From an uncultured Pseudomonadota bacterium (lineage in GTDB: Bacteria > Myxococcota_A > UBA796 > SXON01), in NCBI GenBank assembly GCA_903900265.1, contig CAIUMM010000015.1:4036-68035 (forward strand): DNA of 64,000 bases, in the 5' to 3' direction. Numbering within the stretch: the stretch's first letter is position 1; each line of letters begins with the position of its first letter. The translations under genes and the position numbers were made by a program. This document shows positions 2 through 26,455 of this stretch, one piece after another. The notes beneath the pieces were generated by a model. The model was given only the letters and a program-made list of their open reading frames with translations. It was not told where the DNA came from and made no database searches.

Positions 2-2566
2 GCGGAGATCCGGCAGGCGGTGGACGACGCCGTCGCCCCTCGCCTACGCCGCGTGGACGGCGTGGCGGGCATGATCATCTCCGGGGGAGATGCCCGCGAG
101 GTGCACCTGCTCACGCGCCTCGACGCGCTCGCGGCGCGCGGGCTCGCGATCGCCGACGTGCTGACCACCTTGCCGCGGCAGGTGGTCAACAACCGCGGCG
201 GGCCGCTGTGGTTGGGCAAGCGTGAGTACACGCTGCGCACCCTCGCGCGCCCGGAGACCCTCGACGATCTCGGGGACATCGTGCTTCGGCGGGATGCGGG
301 GGGCATCGTGCACCTCGCGGACGTCGCGCAGGCGCAGATCGAGCCGGCGGTGGGCCAGACGATGATGCGCATGAACGGCGTGCCGGGCATCGCGCTCGGC
401 ATCCAGCGGCAGACCGGCGCCAACGTGCCGACCACCGCGTCCGGCGTGCAAGACGCCCTCGCTGAGCTGCGCCGCACCTTTGCGATCTCCGGCGTGCCCA
501 TCGACTTTACCGTGCTTTACTCCGAGACGACCTACATCGACGATGCGGTAGAGGGCGCGCTCGAAGACAGCTTGATCGGCGTGGCGCTCGCGGCGGTGGC
601 GCTGTTGATCGCGCTGCGCTCGCCCAAGGCAGTGCTGCTGGTGGCGGCGGTGCAGCCGCTCGCGGTGCTGTGCGTGTTCCCGGTGCTGTGGTTTTTGGGC
701 CGCTCGCTGAACATCATCACCCTCGCCGGGCTGGCGTTCGGGATCGGCATCACCATCGACAACGCCATCGTCGTCGTCGAGAACATCCACCGCCATCGGG
801 AGTCGGGCGCGAGCGTGGGCGACGCCGCGTGGAAGGGCTCGCGGGAGGTCGCCGGGGCGATGCTGGCCGCGACGATGACCAACGTGTGCGTGTTCGCGCC
901 GGTGATCTTCCTGCAAGGCGAGGCCGGCCAGATCTTCCGCGACCTCGCGATCGGCATCTCGGTGGCGGCGATCGGCAGCTTGGTGGCGGTGCTGACGGTG
1001 ATCCCGGCGGCGGCGGCGCTGATCGGCACCGGGAACGTCACGACGGTTTCGGGGGGAGGCGCGCTGGGGCGCGTGTACGGGCGCATCGTGGATGCGATCA
1101 CCGGGCGGACCTCGGTGCGGGCGCTGGTGCTGGTGGCGGCGCTGGGCGCTTCGGCGTTGGGGCTGTTTGCCGTGCCGTCGCCGAGCTACCTGCCGGAGGG
1201 AAACCGCAACCTGATCCTGACCTTTGCGCGTGCGCTCCCTGGGACTTCGGTCGAAGCCGCGGGCGAGCTGCTGGAGCCGATCGAGCAGTCGCTGCTCGCC
1301 GATCCGCGCGTCGCCCGGACCTTTGTGGTGATGTCCTCGCGCTTTTCGGCGCTGGGGATGACGCTGACCGACGAAAACGCCGCTGCGGGGCCGTTCTCGG
1401 CGTTCCTCGGTGAGCTGCGCGGTCGGGTCGCGACCGTCCCCGGCTTCCGGTTCTTGTTCCCGCGCCGGGCGAGCATCTTCCAGGATCCCGGCAAACAGTT
1501 TGAGGTCTCGATCTCCGGTCCGGACCTCGATCAGCTCACGACGCTGGCGGGTGCGGTGCAAGGCAAGCTCCGCGCCTTGGACGGCGTGGTCAGCGTGCGG
1601 TCGAACTTTGAGAGCGGCAATCCCGAGCTTCAGGTGGTGCCGGATCGCACCGCGCTCGCGACCTTGGGCATGACGCCGCTTGAGGTCGCCAACGCCGTCG
1701 AGGTCGCTGTAGGCGGGCGTCGCGTCGGCACCTTCCTCGACGAGGGCCGCGAGCTCGACGTCGTGCTCATCGGCGAGGACCGCTACCGTCACGATCCGGC
1801 GGCGCTCAAGTCCCTGTTGGTGCGCCCCGGCGTGCCGCTCGACGCGGTGGCCGATGTACAAGAGGCGCTGGGTCCGGTCGCCATCCCGCACCTCGATCAG
1901 GCGCGCGCGATCACGCTCTCGGTCAGCCTCGACGAGACCGCCGCGCTCGGCGGCGTGCTCGCCACCTGCGAGTCTACCGTGCTCGACCCGCTGCGCGTGA
2001 GCCTGCCCGCCGGCTACCTGCTGACCACCGGCGGCTCTGCGGATCGCCTGACCGAGACCTTCAACGGCCTGCTGTCGTCCTTCGGCTACGCGCTGGTGAT
2101 CATCTACCTGCTGCTGGTCGCGCTGTACCGCTCGTGGTCGCAGCCGCTGGTGATCCTGACCGCCGTGCCGTTGGGCGTATGCGGCGCGTTGCTGTCGCTG
2201 GCGGCGGTGCATTGGGTCGCGCCGGTGGAGTTCGACACCATCGCGATGCTCGGCATGATCCTGCTCGCCGGGGTGGTGGTCAACACCAGCATCCTCATCG
2301 TCAGTCAGGCCGAAGAGCTGCTCGCGCAAGGGCTGGCGCCGCGGGACGCGCTGCGGGAGGCTGCGGCGTCGCGGCTGCGGCCGATCTTGATGAGCGTGAT
2401 CACCAGCGTGATCGGGATGCTGCCGCTCGCGGCGGGGCAGGGCAGCGGGTCCGAGCTGTACCGCGGGCTCGGCGTGGTGATGGTGGGCGGCATGGTTCTG
2501 TCCACGCTGTTCGTGCCGATCGTGGTGCCGGCGCTGCTGGCGACGCGGGCGCGCTGGCGGGGGTGA
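2..2566 (+). CDS. RND (AcrB/HAE1-type) efflux transporter permease, 5'-partial at window edge
   Basis: The frame is open from nt 2 (AEIRQAVDDAV... precedes the first Met of the 20..2566 ORF). It gives 848+ aa with the alternating periplasmic and multi-TM architecture typical of AcrB-like pumps. Conserved C-terminal block RLRPILMSVITSVIGMLPLAAGQGSGSELYRGLG. High GC3. The start codon lies outside the window. Confidence 0.9.
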   Translation, partial: AEIRQAVDDAVAPRLRRVDGVAGMIISGGDAREVHLLTRLDALAARGLAIADVLTTLPRQVVNNRGGPLWLGKREYTLRTLARPETLDDLGDIVLRRDAGGIVHLADVAQAQIEPAVGQTMMRMNGVPGIALGIQRQTGANVPTTASGVQDALAELRRTFAISGVPIDFTVLYSETTYIDDAVEGALEDSLIGVALAAVALLIALRSPKAVLLVAAVQPLAVLCVFPVLWFLGRSLNIITLAGLAFGIGITIDNAIVVVENIHRHRESGASVGDAAWKGSREVAGAMLAATMTNVCVFAPVIFLQGEAGQIFRDLAIGISVAAIGSLVAVLTVIPAAAALIGTGNVTTVSGGGALGRVYGRIVDAITGRTSVRALVLVAALGASALGLFAVPSPSYLPEGNRNLILTFARALPGTSVEAAGELLEPIEQSLLADPRVARTFVVMSSRFSALGMTLTDENAAAGPFSAFLGELRGRVATVPGFRFLFPRRASIFQDPGKQFEVSISGPDLDQLTTLAGAVQGKLRALDGVVSVRSNFESGNPELQVVPDRTALATLGMTPLEVANAVEVAVGGRRVGTFLDEGRELDVVLIGEDRYRHDPAALKSLLVRPGVPLDAVADVQEALGPVAIPHLDQARAITLSVSLDETAALGGVLATCESTVLDPLRVSLPAGYLLTTGGSADRLTETFNGLLSSFGYALVIIYLLLVALYRSWSQPLVILTAVPLGVCGALLSLAAVHWVAPVEFDTIAMLGMILLAGVVVNTSILIVSQAEELLAQGLAPRDALREAAASRLRPILMSVITSVIGMLPLAAGQGSGSELYRGLGVVMVGGMVLSTLFVPIVVPALLATRARWRG

Positions 2567-2590
2567 GGGGGGCGGCGCCCTCCGGCGAAT

Positions 2591-3004
2591 TCACCCGGCC
2601 TTTCGTCCCGGCTCCGACAGCAGCTGGCGCAGGAACTCCCCGCGCGGGCGGTCACCCCGGAGGGTGTCGAGGCGCTCGGCCTCTGCGGGGGTCAGCAGCA
2701 CGGGCACCCTCACGCTGCGCTGATCCTCGGGGCGCCGGGCCCGCAGCGCGGCGGGCATGGGTTCTCCGAAGCGCTGCTGCCATGCCCCCGCGGCTTGGGT
2801 TTCCTCCCAAGCCATCAGCTCCAGCGTGGAGAATTGGTAGGGCGTAGAGCCGTCCGCCGGATCGACGCAGCCGGACGGGCACTGCCAGACGAAGCCGTCG
2901 AAGGCCAGTACGCGCTCTCCGCGGCGGAAGCGGGTCACCTTGGAGACCGGGAGGGCTTGCGCGCCGCAGCCGGAGCAGGACGGGGGATGCAGGTTTGGCT
3001 TCAT
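2591..3004 (-). CDS. Zn-ribbon (YgiT/MqsA-like) protein with C-terminal ribbon-helix-helix-like segment; possible orphan antitoxin/regulator
   Basis: 137-aa ORF with paired Cys motifs (CSGC ... CPSGC) in the N-terminal 45 aa, as in MqsA/YgiT zinc ribbons. C-terminal segment VRVPVLLTPAEAERLDTLRGDRPRGEFLRQLL resembles an RHH strand-helix. Good GC3 bias. Function is inferred from motifs only. Confidence 0.6.
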   Translation of the reverse strand: MKPNLHPPSCSGCGAQALPVSKVTRFRRGERVLAFDGFVWQCPSGCVDPADGSTPYQFSTLELMAWEETQAAGAWQQRFGEPMPAALRARRPEDQRSVRVPVLLTPAEAERLDTLRGDRPRGEFLRQLLSEPGRKAG

Positions 3005-3253
3005 GGTTCACCGTCGTCGACCGCACGTCGAAGGCGTAGGAGGAAGGCGGCGAGAAGCGCAGCGGCTGGGGGCACACGCACTCTATATGCTCATGTTGCG
3101 TGTTTGGGCAAGCGGCGCGAGTTTGTGACAATGGTAGCTGGGCATTCTGCCATCGTTCGATGATCGATGTCGGAGGATCAGCGTCGCTTAAGAACGCTGC
3201 GGCGTCCCCCAACCATGGGAAACCACGAGATCCAGCCACTCCGTGCGTCCGCG

Positions 3254-3808
3254 CTACGCGATCGTGGTGCGGGGGCCGAACACCGCGTCGAGGATGCGCT
3301 CGTGCAACCAACCGGTCTGCGGGTCGTCGAGCCAACCGAACTGCCCGTTGGAGTTCACTTCGAGGAATTCGAAGTGGCCGGCGTCGTCGACGATGAAGTC
3401 GAGTCGCCCGTAGTGTAGCCGTGCGTCCGCCATCAGGGCGCGGATGCCGGCGGCTACGTTGTCCGGCAGGGTGAGCGGCTCCCAGGTGTCGGCCTGCGGC
3501 GTGTTGATGTACTCCCGCCAGTCGGTCGGGCCGTCTTGCCGCGCCCGCCGAACGCGGAAGCCGTAGCAGTCACCGGCCACGTACACCACGGTTGCGTCGT
3601 GGCTGCCGGATGCAGGCGTTTGCAGCAACCAAGGGTAGCGCGCGTCCAGACGCTCGGCCTCGACGATGGAGGTGTAGAGGAAGCGCATCCGTTCGTGGTG
3701 GAGGGGTTCGGCGATCAGCGCCTTCACCGCCCGTGTTCCCGGGGTCGGGCCGGCGCCGAATGTGTACTCCCAAGCCGGCACGTTCAAGTGGCGGGCGGCC
3801 ATGGTCAT
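3254..3808 (-). CDS. ATP-grasp domain protein, probably N-terminally truncated
   Basis: 184-aa ORF ending with the ATP-grasp C-terminal signature (GRLDFIVDDAGHFEFLEVNSNGQFGW). The frame is closed by a stop only 10 codons upstream of the Met (at 3839-3841). The ORF abuts the RND-remnant junction at 3826. The usual pre-ATP-grasp N-domain (about 100 aa) is absent. Confidence 0.6.
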   Translation of the reverse strand: MTMAARHLNVPAWEYTFGAGPTPGTRAVKALIAEPLHHERMRFLYTSIVEAERLDARYPWLLQTPASGSHDATVVYVAGDCYGFRVRRARQDGPTDWREYINTPQADTWEPLTLPDNVAAGIRALMADARLHYGRLDFIVDDAGHFEFLEVNSNGQFGWLDDPQTGWLHERILDAVFGPRTTIA

Positions 3809-3825
3809 CTGCGCGAGTTTGTTCA

Positions 3826-4050
3826 GCCGGGGTGGTGGTCAACACCAGCGGCCGATCGGGATGAGCGTGATCACCAGCGTGATCGGGATGCTGCCGCGGG
3901 CGGCGGGGCAGGGCAGCGGTTCAGAGCTGTACCGCGGGCTCGGCGTGGTACACGCTGTTCGTGCCGGCGCTGTTGCCGGCGCTGTTGCCGGCGCTGTTGC
4001 CGGCGCTGTTGCCGGCGCTGCTGGCGAAGCGTGCGCGCTGGCGGGGGTGA
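3826..4050 (+). pseudogene. Decayed duplicate of the RND permease 3' end (gene remnant)
   Basis: Nucleotide-level copy of 2267-2566. Identical runs include gccggggtggtggtcaacaccagc, gatgagcgtgatcaccagcgtgatcgggatgctgccgc and gagctgtaccgcgggctcggcgtggt. It ends in the same ...gcgcgctggcgggggtga stop. Two internal deletions (about 91 and 25 nt) and a 12-nt expansion break it into three frames. Confidence 0.85.
3963..4022. repeat. 12-bp tandem repeat gccggcgctgtt x4 plus one variant unit (encodes PALL repeats in the remnant frame)
   Basis: Read directly from the sequence. Units are at 3963, 3975, 3987, 3999 and 4011 (last unit gccggcgctgct). The intact gene has a single copy at about 2528-2540. 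Confidence 0.95.
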
Positions 4051-4123
4051 GGAGGCGGTGGTTACTGTTTCGGATGTTGCGAATGAGCCGTGCGGTGGCT
4101 ATAATTCTTCAGCGAGGTTCGTC

Positions 4124-4561
4124 ATGTTCGATGTCACCACCCCAACCGCCGAGTCTGCGCGCGTCGCGGAGACAGCGCTGCGCACCCTTACCGGGCACCC
4201 CGTCGGCGGTGCGTCGCTGCACGTTTGTGAGGACGGCAAAGACACGGCGGTAGCGTTGCCCGATGAGGTGTTGTCGCTGCTCGTACACGTGCTCGGGCAG
4301 ATGGCGAACGGCAACGGGGTTCGTGTGGTGCCCGTTCACGCAGAGCTCACCACGCAACAAGCCTCGGACATCCTGAATGTCTCGCGGCCGCATTTCGTCA
4401 AGCTCGTCGAGAGCGGAGCGATGCCGTTCCACTGGGTCGGCACGCATCGGCGCATCAAGCTTGGCGATCTACTGGTTTACAAGGCGCGCTTTGAGGCCCA
4501 GCAGGACGCATGCCTGGCCGAGTTGACGGCTGAGGCACAGAAGCTGAACCTCGGCTACTGA
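4124..4561 (+). CDS. Type II antitoxin, excisionase-family helix-turn-helix DNA-binding protein
   Basis: Internal ATG at 4124 of the 3536..4561 ORF; the upstream part of that ORF is the RND remnant read out of frame. C-terminal TTQQASDILNVSRPHFVKLVESGAMPFHWVGTHRRIKLGDLLVY matches the excisionase/MerR-type HTH. The stop lies 3 nt before the PIN gene start. Confidence 0.8.
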   Translation: MFDVTTPTAESARVAETALRTLTGHPVGGASLHVCEDGKDTAVALPDEVLSLLVHVLGQMANGNGVRVVPVHAELTTQQASDILNVSRPHFVKLVESGAMPFHWVGTHRRIKLGDLLVYKARFEAQQDACLAELTAEAQKLNLGY

Positions 4562-4564
4562 ACG

Positions 4565-5125
4565 ATGGCCAATGTAGCGATCTTCGATGCTTGCGTGCTG
4601 TACTCCGCACCGTTGCGGGATTTTTTACTCCGGCTTGGACGGGCGGGCGTAGTACAGCCTCGTTGGTCAGACCTGATCCTCGACGAATGCTTCCGTAGCA
4701 TCCTACAGAACCGGCCCGATCTCTCCGAAGCGTCGCTTGCGCGCACGCGCACGGTCATGAACGTTGCGTTCCCCAGCGCTCTGGTTGAGGGCTTTGAGCA
4801 GCTCATCGCCGCGAGCGCGTTGCCGGACGCGGATGACCGCCACGTCCTCGCGGCCGCGCTGCATTCTCATGCTTCCACGATTGTGACCTTCAACCTGAAA
4901 GACTTCCCGGCGAGCGTCCTCGAGCCTCTCGGTGTGGCCGCCGTACACCCAGACGACTTCGTTCTGGAACGGATCGCCGATGGCCTCGGACCGGTTCAGG
5001 CTGCGATCGCCAAGCAGGCCGCCGATCTCACGCGACCCCCCGGGACGATCCATGACGTGCTTGAACGTCTCCAGGACTGCGGCCTGCCGCGAAGCGTCGC
5101 TAAGCTCCGAGCTGAAATGGCCTGA
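4565..5125 (+). CDS. PIN-domain toxin (VapC-like ribonuclease)
   Basis: 186 aa. Acidic PIN residues appear in the expected order (FDACVLY, ILDECF, DADDRHVLAAAL, TFNLKDF). Immediately downstream of the HTH antitoxin, a typical two-gene TA layout. Confidence 0.85.
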   Translation: MANVAIFDACVLYSAPLRDFLLRLGRAGVVQPRWSDLILDECFRSILQNRPDLSEASLARTRTVMNVAFPSALVEGFEQLIAASALPDADDRHVLAAALHSHASTIVTFNLKDFPASVLEPLGVAAVHPDDFVLERIADGLGPVQAAIAKQAADLTRPPGTIHDVLERLQDCGLPRSVAKLRAEMA

Positions 5126-5156
5126 GATGGCGGGCGCGGCACCGCACAGGGTCTGG

Positions 5157-5287
5157 TACTGTCGGATTTTGATTCGGATTGCTCCTCGCCTGCGGTTCCG
5201 TGGCTGGTTGCTGCGCTTCAGGTCCGACCCTACCCACCGGCGGTGTACCCGTGATCCACCGAGCGAACGATGATCGAGACCTTAGTA
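5157..5287. repeat. MITE/REP-like intergenic repeat, degenerate copy A (homologous to 26296-26455)
   Basis: tactgtcggattttgattcggattgctcctcgcctgcgg matches taccgtcggatcttgattcggattgttcctcgcctgcgc at 26297 (about 34/38). Further similarity runs to ...gtgatccacc... near the right end. It starts 32 nt after the PIN stop codon. Confidence 0.7.
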
Positions 5288-5740
5288 CGAGCGCGGTGCG
5301 CCGCCGCGATCCCCCTCGCGGAAGCGATGGTGCGTGCGTTGCGGGAGCTGCCGGGGCCCCGACGGGTGGATGAGGAGGCCTGGTATGCCGAGGCCTGTTG
5401 GGCGCGGGCCGCCATCGCGCACGGGATGTCCGACCTTCCCGAGATACCGGAGACCGTAGCGGCGCTGCGCGCTGCGCCGCTGGTGCCGGGCGAGCCGGTC
5501 GGGCTGTGGGGGTTGCGCGTGGCCCGCGACCTCGCCCCCGTGCGGCTCGTCTACCTCCTCGAGATCGTCGCCCGGCTGCGGACAGGCGACTATCCGTCGC
5601 GGGTGCCGCGAACGGCGAGCCGGGCGGCACGGACCGAGGTCGCCGATTGGATGCAACGACGCGCGTGGTGTGAGGGCATGTTGTACGGACTTGGACCCGC
5701 TGAGGCCTACGTGGCGGCGGCGGTGCTTCCGGGCGCGTAA
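5270..5740 (+). CDS. Hypothetical protein
   Basis: 156-aa ORF with strong GC3 bias. The overlapping 261-aa minus-strand ORF is Arg/Pro-rich shadow-like. No recognisable motif. The start codon lies inside repeat copy A. Confidence 0.6.
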   Translation: MIETLVRARCAAAIPLAEAMVRALRELPGPRRVDEEAWYAEACWARAAIAHGMSDLPEIPETVAALRAAPLVPGEPVGLWGLRVARDLAPVRLVYLLEIVARLRTGDYPSRVPRTASRAARTEVADWMQRRAWCEGMLYGLGPAEAYVAAAVLPGA

Positions 5741-5940
5741 ACGCGCGAGCCCATGGGAGCAAACCGCCGCTCGCGTGAGGGGGCGTCACCCGAAGGGCCG
5801 AGACCGCAGGTCTCGGTCGGGAGGCGTGCGCGCCGACCGATAGCACCCGGCCGGCGCAGCCGGCGCGCCCACGAACGCAGGCCAACCGGACGGGATGCGA
5901 CAGGGAGCCCGATAGGGCGGGCCGGGGGTATGCTGTACCG

Positions 5941-6516
5941 GTGCCCCTGAACGACCCGGCTCCGACGTCCGATCCGCGGGTGCCCGTTTTTCCGCGAGTG
6001 ACGGGCGCCGATCTGGCGCGTGCCCGGGCGTTTGCGAGCGCCGAGCTGGCGCGGCCCAGGACGGGCTCGGAGTGGCGCGGGGAGCTGCTTGACTGCGGCT
6101 TGTTGGTGGATCTGGGCGCTGCGGACGACGACGGCGAGCCGCTCCGGGGCGTGCAGCGGGCGTTGACCGCGCTGCTTCGGGCCGAGGATGCGCTGGTCGC
6201 GGTGGATCAGCCGTCGCCGTGGTCGGTGGGGGAAGCCCCGCTTGCGGCGTGGGCCATCCTGTTTGGCACGTGGTTCGTGCTGACGACGGTTTGGAACCTG
6301 CTGGTGGGGATCTGCGGCGGCGCCGTTCTGCTCGGCGCGGTCGCGATCCTCGGGTTGCTCCGCCACGCCTACACGGCGCGGGAGACCGCGCAGCAGGTGC
6401 TCGCGGCGCGGGAGCAGGTCGCTACCGCCGGCGGGCTGCTGCGGGCGCGGATCCTAAGCCTGCACGCGGGCGCGTTCCCTGTGCTGACCGCGAGCGTGCG
6501 CGTCGAGGCGAGGTGA
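5941..6516 (+). CDS. Hypothetical membrane protein (two predicted TM helices)
   Basis: 191-aa ORF with a GTG start and high GC3. Hydrophobic stretch AAWAILFGTWFVLTTVWNLLVGICGGAVLLGAVAILGLL. No known motif. Confidence 0.6.
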   Translation: MPLNDPAPTSDPRVPVFPRVTGADLARARAFASAELARPRTGSEWRGELLDCGLLVDLGAADDDGEPLRGVQRALTALLRAEDALVAVDQPSPWSVGEAPLAAWAILFGTWFVLTTVWNLLVGICGGAVLLGAVAILGLLRHAYTARETAQQVLAAREQVATAGGLLRARILSLHAGAFPVLTASVRVEAR

Positions 6517-11650: not shown

Positions 11651-13801
11651 ATGTTTTTTCTGCTGCTGTCTCTCGCGCACGCTGCCCCGGTTGGGGATGG
11701 CGGAGCTGCGCCTGAGGGGGCGCCCGAAGTCCCGGTAGCGCCGGTAGCGCCGGTAGCGAGGGACGACGCGCCCGACGGCCGCGCCGCGGTGGACGTCACC
11801 GCGCAGATCGCGAGCCCAGACGGTTCCCCGGCCACGTTGACGGTGGTGCCGCTGGGCGTCGAAGTCGCGGGGGAGACCGATCTCGCCGGCGTGCTCGACC
11901 GCGTGCCGGGAACGACCATCCGTCGCCTCGGTGGACTCGGGGATTTTGCGGGGGTGCGGCTGCGCGGCTCGACCTTCCAACAGGTCGAGTTCTTCCTCGA
12001 TGGGGTGCCGTTGAACCCCAACGGCGACACGGTGGTGGACCTGTCGAGCCTGCCGGTGTCGCTGTTCTCGGACATGCTGGTGTACCGCGGCTTCGCGCCG
12101 GCGCGCTACGGATCGTCGGCGATGGGCGGCGTGGTCGATCTGCTCACCACGGCCACCGCCCCGGCGGCGCTCGGGGTCTCCGGCGGTTCCTGGGGCACGG
12201 TGCACAGCTGGGGCGCGACGCAGCGCTGCCTCGGCCAGACCGACGCGCTGCTCACCTTCGATCAGCTGCACACCGACGGCGACTGGTCGTATTTCGACGA
12301 TCAAGGCACGGACTTCAATCGCTTCGACGATCGGACCCCGGTGCGGGAGCACAACCGCATCGACCGGGCGAGCGGACTCGCGCGGCTGCGCACCCGCTTC
12401 CCGGGGCTGACGCTCTCGTGGATGGATGCGCCCGGGTGGGTGTCGCAGGAGCTGACCGGCACCATCGCGAACCCGTCCAAGAGCGCGACCTGGGACAGCA
12501 TCCGCAACCTCGCCGTCGTCACCGCCGACGCCAGCGGCGGCTCTGCGTTGCCGTGGCGGCTGCGTCCCCGGGCGTGGTGGTTGCACCGCGACGAGACGAC
12601 GCAGGATCTCGAAGCCGAGCTTGGGGTCGGAAACTCGTGGACCCGCGGCGTCTGGAACACCGCCGGGGTGCAGTTGGACGCCACGTTGCTGCCGGCGCGC
12701 TGGTTGTCCACGAGTCTGCTCCTGCGCGGGCGCGAGGACGTGTTTCAGCCGTTCAACCTGCTCGCTGACGATGCGGGTACGAAAGACGGCAGCCGCCTTC
12801 GGCGCGGGTTGTCGGCCGCGCTCTCCTCCGACGCGTGGATCCAGCCGGGCCTCGGGACGCTCACGCTCTCGCCGGTGGTGCAGCTCGATGTGCTCGACAA
12901 CCACCTCTTGGGCGATGTGCCGTTCGAGGACATGCCGGTCTCGCCCGGCACCGAGGATCTCCAGGTCTTTGTCATGCCGCGCGCAGGGGCAAACTGGGCG
13001 ATCGTCGGGCCGCTAAGCGTGCGCGCAAACGCCGGCTGGTACGCGCGCGCCCCCGATCTCACCGAGCTCTTCGGCGATCAAGGCGTGGTCACTGGCAACA
13101 CCGATCTCGTCGCCGAGCGCGGGTTTGGGTTCGAGGCGGGCGCGCACCTCGCCGAGTCCCGCCTCGGCGTGTTCACCATCGGCGCGGACGCCGCCTACGC
13201 CCGCCAGCGCGTGCACGATCTCATCACCTACGTGCCCAACTCGCAGCTCACCGAGCACGCCGTCAACCTCGGCGAGGCGTACTTCCGCAGCCTCGAGGGT
13301 GCGCTGCATCTGGGGCTCGACGGTCAACTTGGCGCGGTGCACCTCGGCATTGGCTCGGACTCGGGGGTGACGCAGATCCTCTCCCGCAACCTCGACACCG
13401 ACCGCACCTATTCGGACAACCAACTCCCGAATGTCCCACCGCTCGATGTGACACAGACCACCGTCTTGTCCATGTCTGCGCCATGGTTGGACAGCGTGAC
13501 GTTGTCCCATACGTGGTCCTACACCGCGGCGACCTACACCGACGCGGCCAACCAGAACGCGTCGGCGCCACGGGATCTGCACGCGGTGGCGCTCTCCGTG
13601 CGCCCCGGCCGGGACCTTCCAACGCTGCAGGCGAGCGTGCTCAACCTCTTCGATGTCCGCGGAATGGCGGTGGATCGCAACCCGTTGGACGCCGACGACA
13701 ACGCGCTCGTCGTCAAACCCCTCACTGATTTTGTAGGCTACCCTTTGCCTGGTCGCACGGTGATGATCACCGTACGCTGGGAAGAATCACCCCCGGAGTA
13801 G
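11651..13801 (+). CDS. TonB-dependent receptor (BtuB-like outer-membrane corrinoid transporter)
   Basis: 716 aa with a signal peptide MFFLLLSLAHA, a TonB-box-like VDVTAQ, and a plug domain (DLAGVLDRVPGTTIRRLGGLGDFAGVRLRGSTFQQVEFFLDGVPLN). A long beta-barrel region follows. It sits directly behind the B12 riboswitch. Confidence 0.9.
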   Translation: MFFLLLSLAHAAPVGDGGAAPEGAPEVPVAPVAPVARDDAPDGRAAVDVTAQIASPDGSPATLTVVPLGVEVAGETDLAGVLDRVPGTTIRRLGGLGDFAGVRLRGSTFQQVEFFLDGVPLNPNGDTVVDLSSLPVSLFSDMLVYRGFAPARYGSSAMGGVVDLLTTATAPAALGVSGGSWGTVHSWGATQRCLGQTDALLTFDQLHTDGDWSYFDDQGTDFNRFDDRTPVREHNRIDRASGLARLRTRFPGLTLSWMDAPGWVSQELTGTIANPSKSATWDSIRNLAVVTADASGGSALPWRLRPRAWWLHRDETTQDLEAELGVGNSWTRGVWNTAGVQLDATLLPARWLSTSLLLRGREDVFQPFNLLADDAGTKDGSRLRRGLSAALSSDAWIQPGLGTLTLSPVVQLDVLDNHLLGDVPFEDMPVSPGTEDLQVFVMPRAGANWAIVGPLSVRANAGWYARAPDLTELFGDQGVVTGNTDLVAERGFGFEAGAHLAESRLGVFTIGADAAYARQRVHDLITYVPNSQLTEHAVNLGEAYFRSLEGALHLGLDGQLGAVHLGIGSDSGVTQILSRNLDTDRTYSDNQLPNVPPLDVTQTTVLSMSAPWLDSVTLSHTWSYTAATYTDAANQNASAPRDLHAVALSVRPGRDLPTLQASVLNLFDVRGMAVDRNPLDADDNALVVKPLTDFVGYPLPGRTVMITVRWEESPPE

Positions 13802-15350: not shown

Positions 15351-16847
15351 ATGGTCGCATTGGCCTTGGTCTTCGGCTGCCAACCGGCGGCCGAGGCGAC
15401 TAACGCTTCCGTGCACTTCCTCCGCGGCGCGGTGGAGCGGGGCGGCACCATCGAGGTGCGCTCCTATCAGCCGGGGGAGACCGTCGACGGCGTGGTCGCG
15501 CCCCACGCCCCAGAGTGCAGGTCTCAGCTGGTGATTCCCTTGGAAGACCGCCGCGCCGACGCGGAGCAGGGCGCGCCACCTGCGGGCGCTGCGCTGGCCT
15601 TCTCCCCCGACAGTACGACCCTCGCGATTGGCTCGGTGGAAGGCGCGATCAAGGTGGTTCGGGTGCCTTCGGGCGCGGTGGTCGCTGAAAAGCAGCTCGC
15701 CGAAGGCTCGGTCAAGCAGGTGGCCTATAGTCATGATGGAAACACGATTTATGTGGGCGAGCAGTCGCCGGATGCCTACGTGTATGCGCTGGATGCGGCG
15801 ACGCTGACCGAGCGTTGGAAGGTACGTCTGGCGGATGACATCGCGTCGAGCGCCCTGCCCGCAGACGATACGATGTACGGGCGGTTCTCTTTGCCGGGCG
15901 CCTACGCGGTGCAGGTGCTGCGTGACGGTCGCGTGCTGGTCGCTGGCGCGCACGGCTGGGTCACCGGGGAAGGCCGCCAGAATCGAGCCCGCCTGTATGT
16001 CCTAAGCGCCGCTGGAGCGCAGCTCGCCGCGTATCCACCTGCCGGGGCCGCAGATGGGATTTTCCTCTTTCCATCGGTGTATGAGCCCGAAGATGGTCCC
16101 GGCGATGTATTGCTCGGCGTCGCGCGGTCCGCCGATGGACCGGCGCCGGACGCCCTGCCGGTGGGCGGATTGCTCGATCTGTCGTCCTCCGACCTTTCGA
16201 TGCGATGGAGCTCTATTTTCCCGCCGTTGACGCCCTGGTTCAAGGATGTCTATTTCTGGGAGGCGGTGGTGCGCGGGCCGGGCTTCGCGTTCGCGGGTCT
16301 CGGGGACGGTCGGGCGTTTGTGCTCGATGGAACTGGGAAGTCGACCGCTACGCTTCAGCCAGGGATCCCGGTGCTGACCGGAGGCGTGCCGATCGGGGTG
16401 GGCGTCGGCTTTGCCACCGCGAGCCCCCAAGGCATCTGGTACCTCACGACCAGCACCAACATCCCCTGGGGCAGCGCCGATCCCGCCGCCCGTCCGCCCT
16501 CGGCGCATCCTGCTGAGAACACCGTACACGCGGTCAAACCCGACGGTACGCCGCGTTGGGACCGCCAGCTTCACGAGGCCGTGGCTGGCGTTGTGCTCTC
16601 CCCGGACGGCTCCGCGCTGCTCGTAGGGGCGGGGCCACGGGAGTCCGACACCCGCACCGATCTGTTCGGCGCCGTCGTTCTCGACGCCGCGACCGGCAAG
16701 ACGATCACCACGTGCAGCACCGTCGCGCCTACCGATTTCCGACCGGTTTTTGCGCCCGACGGAGGGTGGATCGCGGTCACCGAGGCGCCGTTCAAGACCG
16801 GGGACGGATCCGTCGCCGGGGCCTACCAGGTCACGGTTTTTCGATGA
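15351..16847 (+). CDS. WD40/PQQ-like beta-propeller lipoprotein
   Basis: Internal ATG gives MVALALVFGC (lipobox). WD40-like blades are present (LAFSPDSTTLAIGSVEGAIKVVRVPSG..., VAYSHDGNTIYVG, VLSPDGSALLVG, FAPDGGWIAVT). Confidence 0.8.
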   Translation: MVALALVFGCQPAAEATNASVHFLRGAVERGGTIEVRSYQPGETVDGVVAPHAPECRSQLVIPLEDRRADAEQGAPPAGAALAFSPDSTTLAIGSVEGAIKVVRVPSGAVVAEKQLAEGSVKQVAYSHDGNTIYVGEQSPDAYVYALDAATLTERWKVRLADDIASSALPADDTMYGRFSLPGAYAVQVLRDGRVLVAGAHGWVTGEGRQNRARLYVLSAAGAQLAAYPPAGAADGIFLFPSVYEPEDGPGDVLLGVARSADGPAPDALPVGGLLDLSSSDLSMRWSSIFPPLTPWFKDVYFWEAVVRGPGFAFAGLGDGRAFVLDGTGKSTATLQPGIPVLTGGVPIGVGVGFATASPQGIWYLTTSTNIPWGSADPAARPPSAHPAENTVHAVKPDGTPRWDRQLHEAVAGVVLSPDGSALLVGAGPRESDTRTDLFGAVVLDAATGKTITTCSTVAPTDFRPVFAPDGGWIAVTEAPFKTGDGSVAGAYQVTVFR

Positions 16848-26296: not shown

Positions 26297-26455
26297 TACC
26301 GTCGGATCTTGATTCGGATTGTTCCTCGCCTGCGCCCGACGCGTCTGGCTTCGTTGGTTTTCCTCGCCTGCCTCGGCAGGCTTCGTCAAATCCGCCTTGC
26401 CAGCCACGCCGGGCTCTACGGCGATCCACCCATCCGAATCATCGACCGACGGTAT
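26296..26455. repeat. MITE/REP-like intergenic element with 24-bp imperfect terminal inverted repeats, copy B
   Basis: Left end ataccgtcggatcttgattcggat (26296-26319). Right end atccgaatcatcgaccgacggtat (26432-26455). 20 of 24 positions are complementary. There is an internal direct repeat of ttcctcgcctgc. It is homologous to 5157-5287 and begins at the last base of the oxidoreductase stop codon. Confidence 0.75.

Follow-up and report, generated by a model that had tools for sequence, protein, structure and literature searches.

Elements that integrate at gene 3' ends, as in Campbell's prophage insertion-site rule and in the islands that target tRNA and tmRNA genes, carry a replacement end for the gene. 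Bacterial pseudogenes undergo spontaneous deletions mediated by microhomology and tandem expansions caused by replication slippage. Orphaned 3' regions are also found at Rhs and T6SS loci, where displacement of the type caused by homology-facilitated illegitimate recombination (HFIR) is an established proposal (PMC5361080). The same origin has been proposed for the orphans of C-terminal displacement at Rhs/CDI/T6SS effector-immunity loci (PMC5361080, and Jackson et al. 2009, PMC2935791, as cited in it).

The window analyzed here, a 64,000-nucleotide stretch of a contig from an uncultured Pseudomonadota bacterium, has an RND permease gene whose 3' end recurs, shortened, beyond a small accessory islet. 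As at the Rhs/CDI/T6SS loci, this 3'-end fragment has the orientation of the functional gene and is located 3' of it, beyond newly placed cargo. At its 5' edge, the orphan was joined illegitimately, with filler or microhomology (filler in the related contig L033), the functional end and the orphan appear to be different alleles in another relative (L038), and no integrase is present. The locus differs in that it involves an RND efflux permease, a non-toxin with a conserved C-terminus; in that there is a single orphan and not a string; and in that no polymorphic toxin/immunity logic would favor retention of the orphan, which is frame-broken and decaying. No variable, toxic C-terminus with an immunity gene of its own was found at this locus, nor any toxin/immunity relation to the RND pump. 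The copy is an ordinary, well-documented genomic scar and does not represent a new kind of system. The features of the window are as follows.

20..2566, plus strand: RND (AcrB-type) efflux permease (Pfam ACR_tran, E = 3.7e-162); gene cut by the window start
2267..2575, plus: true RND 3' end, source-type sequence of the repeat (alignment)
2591..3004, minus: 137-aa Zn-ribbon (CxxC...CxxxC) protein, putative MqsA-like antitoxin
3005..3081, minus: scar of a 242-bp deletion that took most of the gene for a 103-aa MqsR-like protein; about the first 23 codons left (3012-3081)
3254..3830, minus: pseudogene left from a graspetide-type ATP-grasp RiPP maturase; residues 120-310 of 310
3826..3830, no strand: GCCGG microhomology, joint of a 1,282-bp deletion
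3826..4058, plus: orphan copy of the RND 3' end, frame broken (233 nt; stop codon 4048-4050)
3962..4020, plus: 12-bp tandem array within the copy (TRF: period 12, 4.9 copies, 100% matches, unit TGCCGGCGCTGT)
4077..4105, plus: promoter-like site TTGCGA-17-TATAAT for the TA operon, just outside the copy
4124..4561, plus: HTH_17/excisionase-family DNA-binding protein, putative antitoxin (HTH_17, E = 4e-9; TIGR01764, E = 4e-12)
4565..5125, plus: PIN-domain protein (RSP_2648 family), putative toxin (PIN_3, E = 7e-10; NF046100, E = 2e-39)
5157..5195, plus: short intergenic repeat, truncated copy; further occurrences at 26297-26334, in L030 and in L032
5270..5740, plus: p156, 156-aa conserved hypothetical gene, right flank of the variable interval

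Structure of the copied RND 3' end

The RND permease is 1010 aa long on related contigs, and alignment with outgroups L012-L014 showed its C-terminus to be conserved to the last residue. An earlier note, made from the sequence alone, described 3826-4058 as a nucleotide-level copy of 2267-2575. Gapped alignment and blastn agreed (E = 1.6e-46 pairwise; E = 2.7e-43 for the copy against the whole window), and blastn revealed no third copy within the 64-kb window. The alignment consists of four collinear blocks. The first (2267-2290 and 3826-3849) is identical at 24 of 24 positions and is followed by an 88-nt deletion, with GC microhomology, that removed 2291-2378 from the copy. The second (2379-2476 and 3850-3947) is about 94% identical, and after 3947 the copy has a deletion of ~24 nt together with one additional A. 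The third (2500-2518 and 3948-3966) matches at 18/19 positions and the fourth (2523-2571 and 4007-4055) at 45/49; the latter covers the TGA stop (2564-2566 in the RND gene) and about 9-12 nt downstream. The earlier estimates of about 91 and 25 nt for the deletions, and of one to five copies for the 12-bp unit, were close to the values obtained here. The reported loss of a continuous frame was also borne out: RND-like peptides AGVVVNTS and TLFVPALL(PALL)n..AKRARWRG* share one frame of the copy, and MSVITSVIGMLP..LYRGLGVV occupies another. The 12-bp array is a product of slippage inside the copy; the unit grew from sequence with a pre-existing 12-nt periodicity, and its copy number is polymorphic, with one unit fewer in L033. 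The element at 3826-4058 is most likely a non-functional, orphaned fragment of the permease's own 3' end.

Haplotypes of the RND-p156 interval and two deletions

The comparison set, composed of metagenome contigs only (one of which, L031, is possibly chimeric at its left end), contains about nine haplotypes of the interval between RND and p156, and p156 is the common right flank in every haplotype with a contig reaching that side. In the intact order, RND is followed by minus-strand genes for the Zn-ribbon antitoxin-like protein, the MqsR-like protein, the 310-aa ATP-grasp protein and a 65-67-aa precursor, and then, on the plus strand, by HTH_31, the RND 3' copy, HTH_17/PIN and p156. An intact 23.6-kb contig carries AT and RND (plus), 137, ATP-grasp310 and 67aa (minus), and HTH_31, 417 nt, HTH_17, PIN and 156aa (plus). 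Among intact haplotypes, this one, with the 137-aa allele and the TA pair, is closest to that of the window. The DNA enclosed by the repeats is part of a strain-variable accessory islet at the pump gene 3' end, which bears out this side of the earlier interpretation. The related species L012-L014 keep the upstream aminotransferase-RND pair and have unrelated DNA downstream, with no islet and no repeat. No empty-site haplotype or species was found, the whole downstream region of the outgroups being non-syntenic, and the polarity of insertion among species is deduced from absent synteny alone.

In L033, the copy starts at about true position 2180, right behind the HTH_31 terminator, and has the same 88-nt and 24-nt deletions as the window, with which it is collinear and 98.1% identical over 3826-4709. 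Its left junction reads ..TTTTTAGGTTCT, then the 11-nt filler CCCTTCCTGTG, then RND from ~2183. The complex 24-nt deletion with its extra A is common to the window copy and to those of L031, L037 and L038, whose genomes are 9-11% different from the window elsewhere. The copy is old, because it is common to diverged lineages and because a start at about 2180 and both deletions are already present in intact haplotypes. Its left edge varies by lineage (about 2180 versus 2293); L035 lacks the 24-nt deletion, yet has the same left edge as L037. In L037 and L038, the copy runs 75 nt beyond the stop into the 3' end of MqsA135, the islet's first gene, and this extension was seen in three assemblies.

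The edge at 3826 was previously taken as an insertion or integration boundary. It is instead the joint of a later GCCGG deletion in an islet that already had the copy, as L033 does. L033rc reads GCCGG at both 1250 and 2532, and the window corresponds to L033 minus the 1,282 bp between these repeats, a size measured against a haplotype with the 135-aa allele, whereas the window has the 137-aa allele. Lost with this stretch were the first 119 ATP-grasp codons, the genes for the 67-aa precursor and for HTH_31, and ~86 nt from the start of the copy. None of the lost genes occurs elsewhere in the window, including the ATP-grasp 5' half for which a search had been proposed, and what was described as a 1.25-kb insertion is all that is left of a cassette once about 2.5-2.8 kb long. 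The ATP-grasp-side sequence at the joint was confirmed in L034 and L029, and the exact 35-nt junction sequence was found again in two independent assemblies (L002 from ENA and L003 from Logan). The deletion is later than the copy and, in this genome, left it joined to an internal part of a gene for a peptide-modifying enzyme. The 5-nt GCCGG repeats, and the GC microhomology of the 88-nt deletion, are typical of short-homology deletions; with the undeleted allele known, the 1,282-bp deletion and the slippage are textbook-type examples and nothing unusual.

The ATP-grasp gene has been truncated independently in different haplotypes at residues 120, 193 and 205. A further loss affected the neighboring toxin-like gene: window 3012-3576 corresponds to L001 6070-5506, where L001 has 242 nt extra. 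The same 242-bp scar is present in L034, there with an intact ATP-grasp gene.

Origin of the copy

A history that accommodates these observations, and that we consider likely as a whole, places an orphan RND 3' fragment at the distal edge of a strain-variable islet between RND and p156. The ancestral islet would have had the order RND (plus), MqsA-like, MqsR-like, ATP-grasp and precursor (minus) and HTH_31 (plus), followed by an RND copy spanning about 2180 to beyond the stop and joined to the HTH_31 terminator by an illegitimate junction with 11-nt filler. The copy would have been born from recombination at the RND 3' end, more likely by HFIR with DNA of another strain that displaced the resident end, or alternatively by segmental (tandem) duplication trimmed by later deletion. 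The orphan then decayed through the 88-nt and ~24-nt deletions, slippage of the 12-bp unit from one to four or five copies and point changes, while gene conversion or recombination led to exchanges between it and functional alleles. In the lineage of this genome, the 242-bp deletion took out the MqsR-like toxin gene, and the 1,282-bp deletion then joined ATP-grasp codon 120 to orphan position 2267, destroying the graspetide-type cassette. The decay, the exchanges and the two deletions are seen directly in the aligned contigs; the ancestral islet and the recombinational origin of the copy are what we infer from them.

All copies cluster with in-species RND alleles and not with the outgroups. 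Between the true end and the copy of L038, 11 of 61 codons differ, 10 of them synonymously and one non-synonymously (P = 2.7e-5), and the two thus appear to be different functional alleles. In the window's own clade, three of the four differences are synonymous (P = 0.07), a bias that is only suggestive of different alleles. Later allelic replacement could mimic such a signal, and the copies are mosaic, so they do not yield a simple tree of events; the left part of the copy resembles the allele of another clade. Since the L037/L038 repeat spans 75 nt of an islet gene, its template was chromosomal DNA in which that gene was already present, in contrast to a replacement end brought in on an attP. 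This extension, the synonymous differences and the lack of an integrase argue for strain-to-strain recombination (3'-end displacement) or segmental duplication, and against an att scar. The earlier view that foreign DNA inserted into, or recombined at, the pump gene 3' end therefore survives with respect to recombination, which the L038 alleles implicate, but not with respect to an integration boundary at 3826 or an integrase.

A tandem duplication within the genome, covering the RND 3' end through HTH_31, with the second copy then largely deleted, would require no foreign DNA and none from another strain. It is possible, if rather less probable than displacement. The junction between the HTH_31 terminator and RND ~2180 looks like a tandem-duplication joint, the L037/L038 copy continues into the MqsA135 tail, the same gene as that behind the true RND end, and the copies are of in-species origin. 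However, this explanation needs at least two events plus a later allelic replacement for the distinct L038 alleles (10:1), and it must explain the resemblance of the left part of the copy to another clade's allele. Granted the replacement, tandem duplication with internal deletion fits about as well as displacement.

The likeness to attL and attR sites is evident, in that accessory DNA lies between direct repeats of a gene 3' end and the functional gene has retained a complete end. An integrase scar, with an attP-borne replacement RND 3' end, the displaced original as attR and an element decayed to 1.25 kb, would also account for the G+C of the islet (0.62-0.68, against 0.70-0.75 in the flanks), its absence from related species and the different alleles of L038. 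It is nevertheless very improbable. Family profiles revealed no integrase or recombinase gene within +/-10 kb or among the islet genes of the roughly nine haplotypes, and the window has no tRNA gene. The repeats were rejected as an att core because they are not confined to the target gene end: they are at least 390 nt long and in L037/L038 extend into the islet's first gene, their left edges are lineage-specific, and their junctions show microhomology or, in L033, filler typical of illegitimate joining. The left edge in the window is itself a secondary deletion.

Even less credible is a decayed paralogue, a once complete second pump gene 3' of HTH_31 eroded to its last 100-130 codons. The copy does lie 3' of HTH_31 on the same strand in L033 and L037, like a regulated gene. 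However, in every haplotype it has an abrupt start (about 2180 or 2293) directly behind the HTH_31 terminator; copies are 94-98% identical to the adjacent true RND gene, compared with about 80-84% for orthologues; and in another lineage the HTH_31/precursor/ATP-grasp cassette (a 66%-identity orthologue) adjoins a non-RND gene. The earlier note had allowed for relatives with an intact second RND gene, but none of those compared has a full-length RND gene between HTH_31 and p156, and the longest copy in any haplotype is about 390 nt. The least plausible explanation is an assembly artefact, with repeats causing a chimeric join in the metagenome-assembled genome, for although short-read contigs L007-L009 begin inside the 12-bp array, where they break, and L031 may be chimeric, the exact junction recurs in L002 and L003 from different samples and assemblers, four further contigs have the same gene order, and the copy, with mutations of its own, is no collapsed duplicate.

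Cargo genes of the islet

As previously described, the repeats enclose a Zn-ribbon gene and an ATP-grasp gene. The 137-aa Zn-ribbon protein has no match in Pfam, NCBIfam or PDB; its CxxC...CxxxC motif and gene order are consistent with MqsA, and in other haplotypes its slot holds a 37%-identical 135-aa allele. Its partner in L001, L037 and L038 gives a weak match to Pfam MqsR_toxin, which for the 103-aa L001 protein spans 8-95/95 (E = 0.0028; 18.5 bits, cut-off 26.2); this protein has no PDB sequence match. The putative antitoxin is orphaned in the window because the gene for its toxin partner has been deleted.

Graspetide (omega-ester/amide peptide) cassettes combine an ATP-grasp maturase with a leader-core precursor (PMC8939145). 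In sibling haplotypes, the 310-aa ATP-grasp protein matches RiPP maturase models end to end (TIGR04187, an ATP-grasp RiPP-maturase model, positions 2-298/312, E = 7e-28, 97.7 bits against a cut-off of 350). A neighboring ORF of 65-67 aa, present in L030, L033, L034, L035 and L039, has an invariant leader and a variable core rich in Thr/Ser/Asp. The scores are far under the curated family cut-offs, and these proteins would therefore represent at best a distant, uncharacterized graspetide group. In the window, the enzyme is reduced to its C-terminal 191 residues and the precursor is missing. Its 184-aa ORF (3254-3808, minus strand) matches TIGR04187 at positions 162-298 only (E = 6e-24), and the remnant is 98% identical to full-length P0001. 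Homology to the 310-aa protein reaches residue 120 at about 3829-3830, seven codons 5' of the ORF Met, where about 10 had been estimated.

The downstream TA pair had been suggested to belong to the same islet and is indeed variably present, being absent from haplotypes L001, L032 and L037. HTH_17 is no integrase but only a DNA-binding domain of the excisionase type, with a PIN protein as its partner. The two genes are 3 nt apart and have the layout of a PIN toxin with an HTH antitoxin, scoring 40.1 bits for PIN_3 and 36.9 bits for HTH_17 (cut-offs 27 and 27); against NF046100, the PIN protein scores 135 bits, under the cut-off of 170.

A second, decayed copy of the RND 3' end

The interval between an AcrB-type RND permease gene and a conserved gene for a 156-aa protein (p156), referred to here as the islet, varies between strains and has the following features in the window.

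Features of the interval and its flanks
20-2566: AcrB-type RND permease, cut by the window start (Pfam ACR_tran, E = 3.7e-162)
2591-3004, minus strand: 137-aa CxxC...CxxxC (Zn-ribbon) protein, no family match
3254-3808, minus strand: ATP-grasp remnant (RiPP-maturase model TIGR04187, E = 6e-24, only 162-298 of 312, the C-terminal half)
4077-4105: promoter-like site of the HTH_17/PIN pair, the only notable signal in a terminator/promoter scan
4124-4561: HTH_17 gene, paired with the PIN gene
4565-5125: PIN (RSP_2648-family) gene, paired with the HTH_17 gene
5270-5740: conserved 156-aa gene (p156)

The duplication of the RND 3' end described in an earlier, sequence-only note was borne out by blastn (pairwise E = 1.6e-46; E = 2.7e-43 with the whole window as subject) and by gapped alignment of 2200-2620 with 3780-4110, and the figures in that note proved good approximations. 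The second copy (the RND copy, 3826-4058) is collinear with the true end of the gene (2267-2575).

Alignment of the RND copy with the true end
Block 1: 2267-2290 with 3826-3849, 24/24 identical
Gap 1: 88 nt missing, GC microhomology
Block 2: 2379-2476 with 3850-3947, about 94% identity
Gap 2: ~24 nt missing, one additional A
Block 3: 2500-2518 with 3948-3966, 18/19
Tandem array: 3962-4020, perfect, 12-bp unit TGCCGGCGCTGT, 4.9 copies (TRF)
Block 4: 2523-2571 with 4007-4055, 45/49, spanning the stop codon and about 10 nt after it

No third copy was found by blastn in the 64-kb window. The RND-like peptides of the copy are split over different reading frames, so it is unable to encode a continuous product; a 341-aa ORF at 3536-4561 was rejected as a separate gene, being an in-frame upstream extension of the HTH_17 gene across the copy. 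The copy number of the 12-bp array differs among haplotypes, and several short-read contigs (L007-L009) start inside it, identifying the array as an assembly break point. The RND copy is real and most probably a non-functional scar: an orphaned, decaying fragment bounding a strain-variable TA/RiPP islet on its distal side, fused by a later microhomology deletion to a half-deleted ATP-grasp gene. For annotation, 3254-3808 and 3826-4058 are pseudogene fragments and should not be called genes.

Intact haplotypes and deletions in this genome

Haplotypes were gathered by exact-protein look-ups and homologue searches of many freshwater metagenomes, and about nine were recovered for the RND-to-p156 interval; a metagenome contig scan with the 156-aa protein returned one short contig only, L032. 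The intact arrangement, on a 23.6-kb contig, has aminotransferase and RND genes in the forward direction, genes for the 137-aa protein, a 310-aa ATP-grasp protein and a 67-aa protein in reverse, and then, forward again, HTH_31 (129 aa), 417 nt, HTH_17, PIN and the 156-aa gene. The ATP-grasp remnant in the window corresponds to residues 120-310 of the full-length protein (98% identity). In L033, a locus of an intact haplotype, the HTH_31 terminator (..GCGCGTTTTTAGGTTCT) is followed by an 11-nt filler and then by the RND copy, starting from about true position 2180. This copy shares with the window both the 88-nt and the 24-nt deletion, as well as the 12-bp array, which has one unit fewer, and L033 is collinear with window 3826-4709 at 98.1% identity. 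Since both deletions are already present in the intact locus, the copy is older than the arrangement in the window, where its left edge (3826) arose secondarily.

The window matches the intact type except for the loss of 1,282 bp between two GCCGG pentamers (L033rc 1250 and 2532), and the sequence on the ATP-grasp side was confirmed in two further loci, L034 and L029. Position 3826, previously read as an integration boundary, is the joint of this deletion, and the supposed 1.25-kb insertion is what is left of a cassette of about 2.5-2.8 kb. Lost in the deletion were the precursor and HTH_31 genes, codons 1-119 of the ATP-grasp gene and ~86 nt from the start of the RND copy. The missing 5' half of the ATP-grasp gene, for which the note had advised a search of the genome, was removed by the deletion; neither it nor the precursor, HTH_31 or the MqsR-like gene occurs elsewhere in the whole window. 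The exact junction recurs in the independent assemblies L002 and L003 and so is no artefact of assembly. Before this, a 242-bp deletion had taken out a 103-aa gene, with a weak MqsR_toxin match (E = 0.003), upstream of the 137-aa gene, and its scar is also found in L034, where the ATP-grasp gene is intact. The position of the 137-aa protein is held in other haplotypes by a 37%-identical 135-aa allele; PDB sequence searches with the 137-aa and 103-aa proteins gave no match. The gene for the Zn-ribbon protein (2591-3081 region) is an orphan antitoxin-like gene, whose 103-aa partner was deleted. We regard this deletion history as practically certain. Because alleles without the deletions persist in this freshwater Myxococcota population, an apparent 3'-end duplication bracketing an insertion could be reconstructed step by step.

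Another locus, L031, is 100% identical to L037 over 4 kb and then diverges inside the MqsR-like gene (L031 3900-5136, locus coordinates), beyond which lie unrelated genes (DAO_C, BD-FAE-like). Its left end reflects a chimeric assembly or else another rearrangement; being possibly chimeric, as the 100% match to L037 starts only within the MqsR gene, it was set aside as an extra haplotype.

Age and origin of the RND copy

The L031, L037 and L038 genomes are about 9-11% diverged from the window's type at the ATP-grasp and 156-aa genes. The copies in these genomes and in the window and L033 nevertheless have in common a complex joint of GGCGTGGTA to CACGCTG (the 24-nt loss with the additional A), which argues for a single origin of the RND copy. 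The copies all cluster with RND alleles from within the species (2-9 differences/98 nt, versus 11-19 to outgroup orthologues), indicating that the source was the lineage's own gene, neither a foreign element nor a distant paralogue. In L037, L038 and the right-hand part of L031, the copy runs 75 nt beyond the stop into the 3' end of a 135-aa antitoxin-like gene. In the L037/L038 haplotype this gene lies behind the true RND end as well, so what was duplicated was chromosomal DNA already carrying the first gene of the islet.

In L038, 11 of 61 codons differ between true end and copy, and 10 of these differences are synonymous (28% synonymous expected by random change; P = 2.7e-5). On this codon pattern, the two are functional alleles in one genome and not a duplicate decayed in place, which implicates strain-to-strain recombination at the end of the RND gene. 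Exchange between strains might have taken place when the copy arose, with homology-facilitated illegitimate recombination (HFIR) displacing the resident RND 3' end; alternatively, a tandem duplication could have come first, with allelic replacement afterwards. HFIR is an existing proposal for how orphaned 3' regions arise at Rhs and T6SS loci (PMC5361080). The probability is shared, roughly, between HFIR-type displacement and tandem duplication with later exchange. The copy resembles the 3'-end displacement of Rhs/CDI loci, but the gene here is a non-toxin transporter; the case is a non-toxin example of similar appearance and a new instance of known event types, with no new mechanism or system.

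The earlier proposal, in which the direct repeat is the displaced end left by recombination at the pump gene 3' end, is plausible in spirit, but its integrative-element mechanism is not supported: no integrase was found within +/-10 kb, and an attP-borne replacement end would look different from the 75-nt extension. G+C falls to 0.62-0.68 across 2800-5200, versus 0.70-0.75 in the flanks. A tRNA/tmRNA scan of the window found none, Rfam searches of 2000-6000 (E <= 1) gave chance-level matches only, and PADLOC gave no relevant match.

The L037 copy is a mosaic, its left part like the window/L001 allele and its last 64 nt like its own genome's allele (seam 2476/2502), and the L035 copy has the same left edge as L037 (2293) but lacks the 24-nt deletion; gene conversion has thus acted on the copies. 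The apparently repaired L035 copy and the L037 seam raise the idea that the orphan is a recurrently renewed recombination anchor, kept close in sequence to the functional gene by gene conversion and forming with the true end direct homology arms for swapping, duplicating or excising whole cassettes (TA pairs, the graspetide unit) between strains. We consider this very improbable; if true, 3'-end displacement of the Rhs/CDI kind would also apply to a transporter gene of the ordinary housekeeping type. A site-specific process, suggested by two coinciding breakpoint pairs (2291/2293 and about 2501/2502), was dropped because simulation gave P = 0.17 for >= 2 such coincidences among about 10 breakpoints.

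Cassettes, TA modules and synteny at the RND 3' end

In sibling haplotypes, a 65-67-aa ORF adjoins the ATP-grasp gene. Its leader, KPVPAAGIPSMPAYDWKRQMRGDAAMQMAG, is invariant and its core varies around conserved Thr/Ser and Asp residues (xxTxNSxQTFxxxGQPxDxxxDxND), as would be expected for a graspetide precursor (for general background, see PMC8939145).

Graspetide-like cassettes and ATP-grasp remnants
Intact, outside the window: L033 1537-2726; L034 130-1319; L035 813-2002; L030 538-1721; L039 167-1414
Truncated: window 3254-3830; L037 3416-3748; L001 5508-5825

The intact cassettes comprise the 310-aa ATP-grasp protein, a divergent HTH_31 regulator and a 65-80-aa precursor whose leader is invariant and whose Thr/Ser/Asp core is hypervariable. 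They score far below curated graspetide family cut-offs and so may represent an uncharacterised group. In L039, from another lineage, a 66%-identical HTH_31/precursor/ATP-grasp unit has a non-RND gene as its neighbour, indicating that the cassette is portable and leaving a decayed second RND paralogue unsupported. The ATP-grasp gene lost its 5' end in three separate events, at residues 120 (window), 193 (L037/L038) and 205 (L001), which suggests recurrent cassette loss in the population. Other haplotypes have different TA-like modules within this slot or adjoining it: L032 (413-1283) carries a HipA-like pair, made up of a weakly HipA-like ORF and a 101-aa ORF, and L037 (1465-1960) carries CcdA/CcdB, near its 158-aa gene. 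The roughly nine haplotypes, the three separate truncations of a single RiPP enzyme gene and the several TA modules in one slot mark this core-gene 3' end as a hotspot of recombination and indels.

A genome contig scan with the RND protein recovered outgroups at 61-82% identity. In three outgroup species (L012-L014; RND 77-82% identity), the upstream aminotransferase-RND pair is kept at 83-86% identity, the RND end is not duplicated, and the downstream genes are unrelated, none being present in the 64-kb window; in L012, a convergent DEAD-box helicase gene begins 32 nt past the RND stop. By gene order, the RND 3' end is a species-level synteny breakpoint. The segment is absent from these species, but the whole downstream region is unrelated and offers neither conserved synteny nor a clean empty site that would show insertion polarity. 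In L012, a 33-nt hairpin over the RND stop (12540-12572) recurs inverted 3.9 kb downstream (16461-16493, 97% identity).

A short intergenic repeat with a TCGGATYTTGATTCGGATTG core occurs in the window at 5157-5195 (truncated) and 26297-26334 (long form to about 26385, with two copies of TTCCTCGCCTGC), in L032 at 1340-1430 and in L030; it is possibly a small, REP/MITE-like dispersed element.
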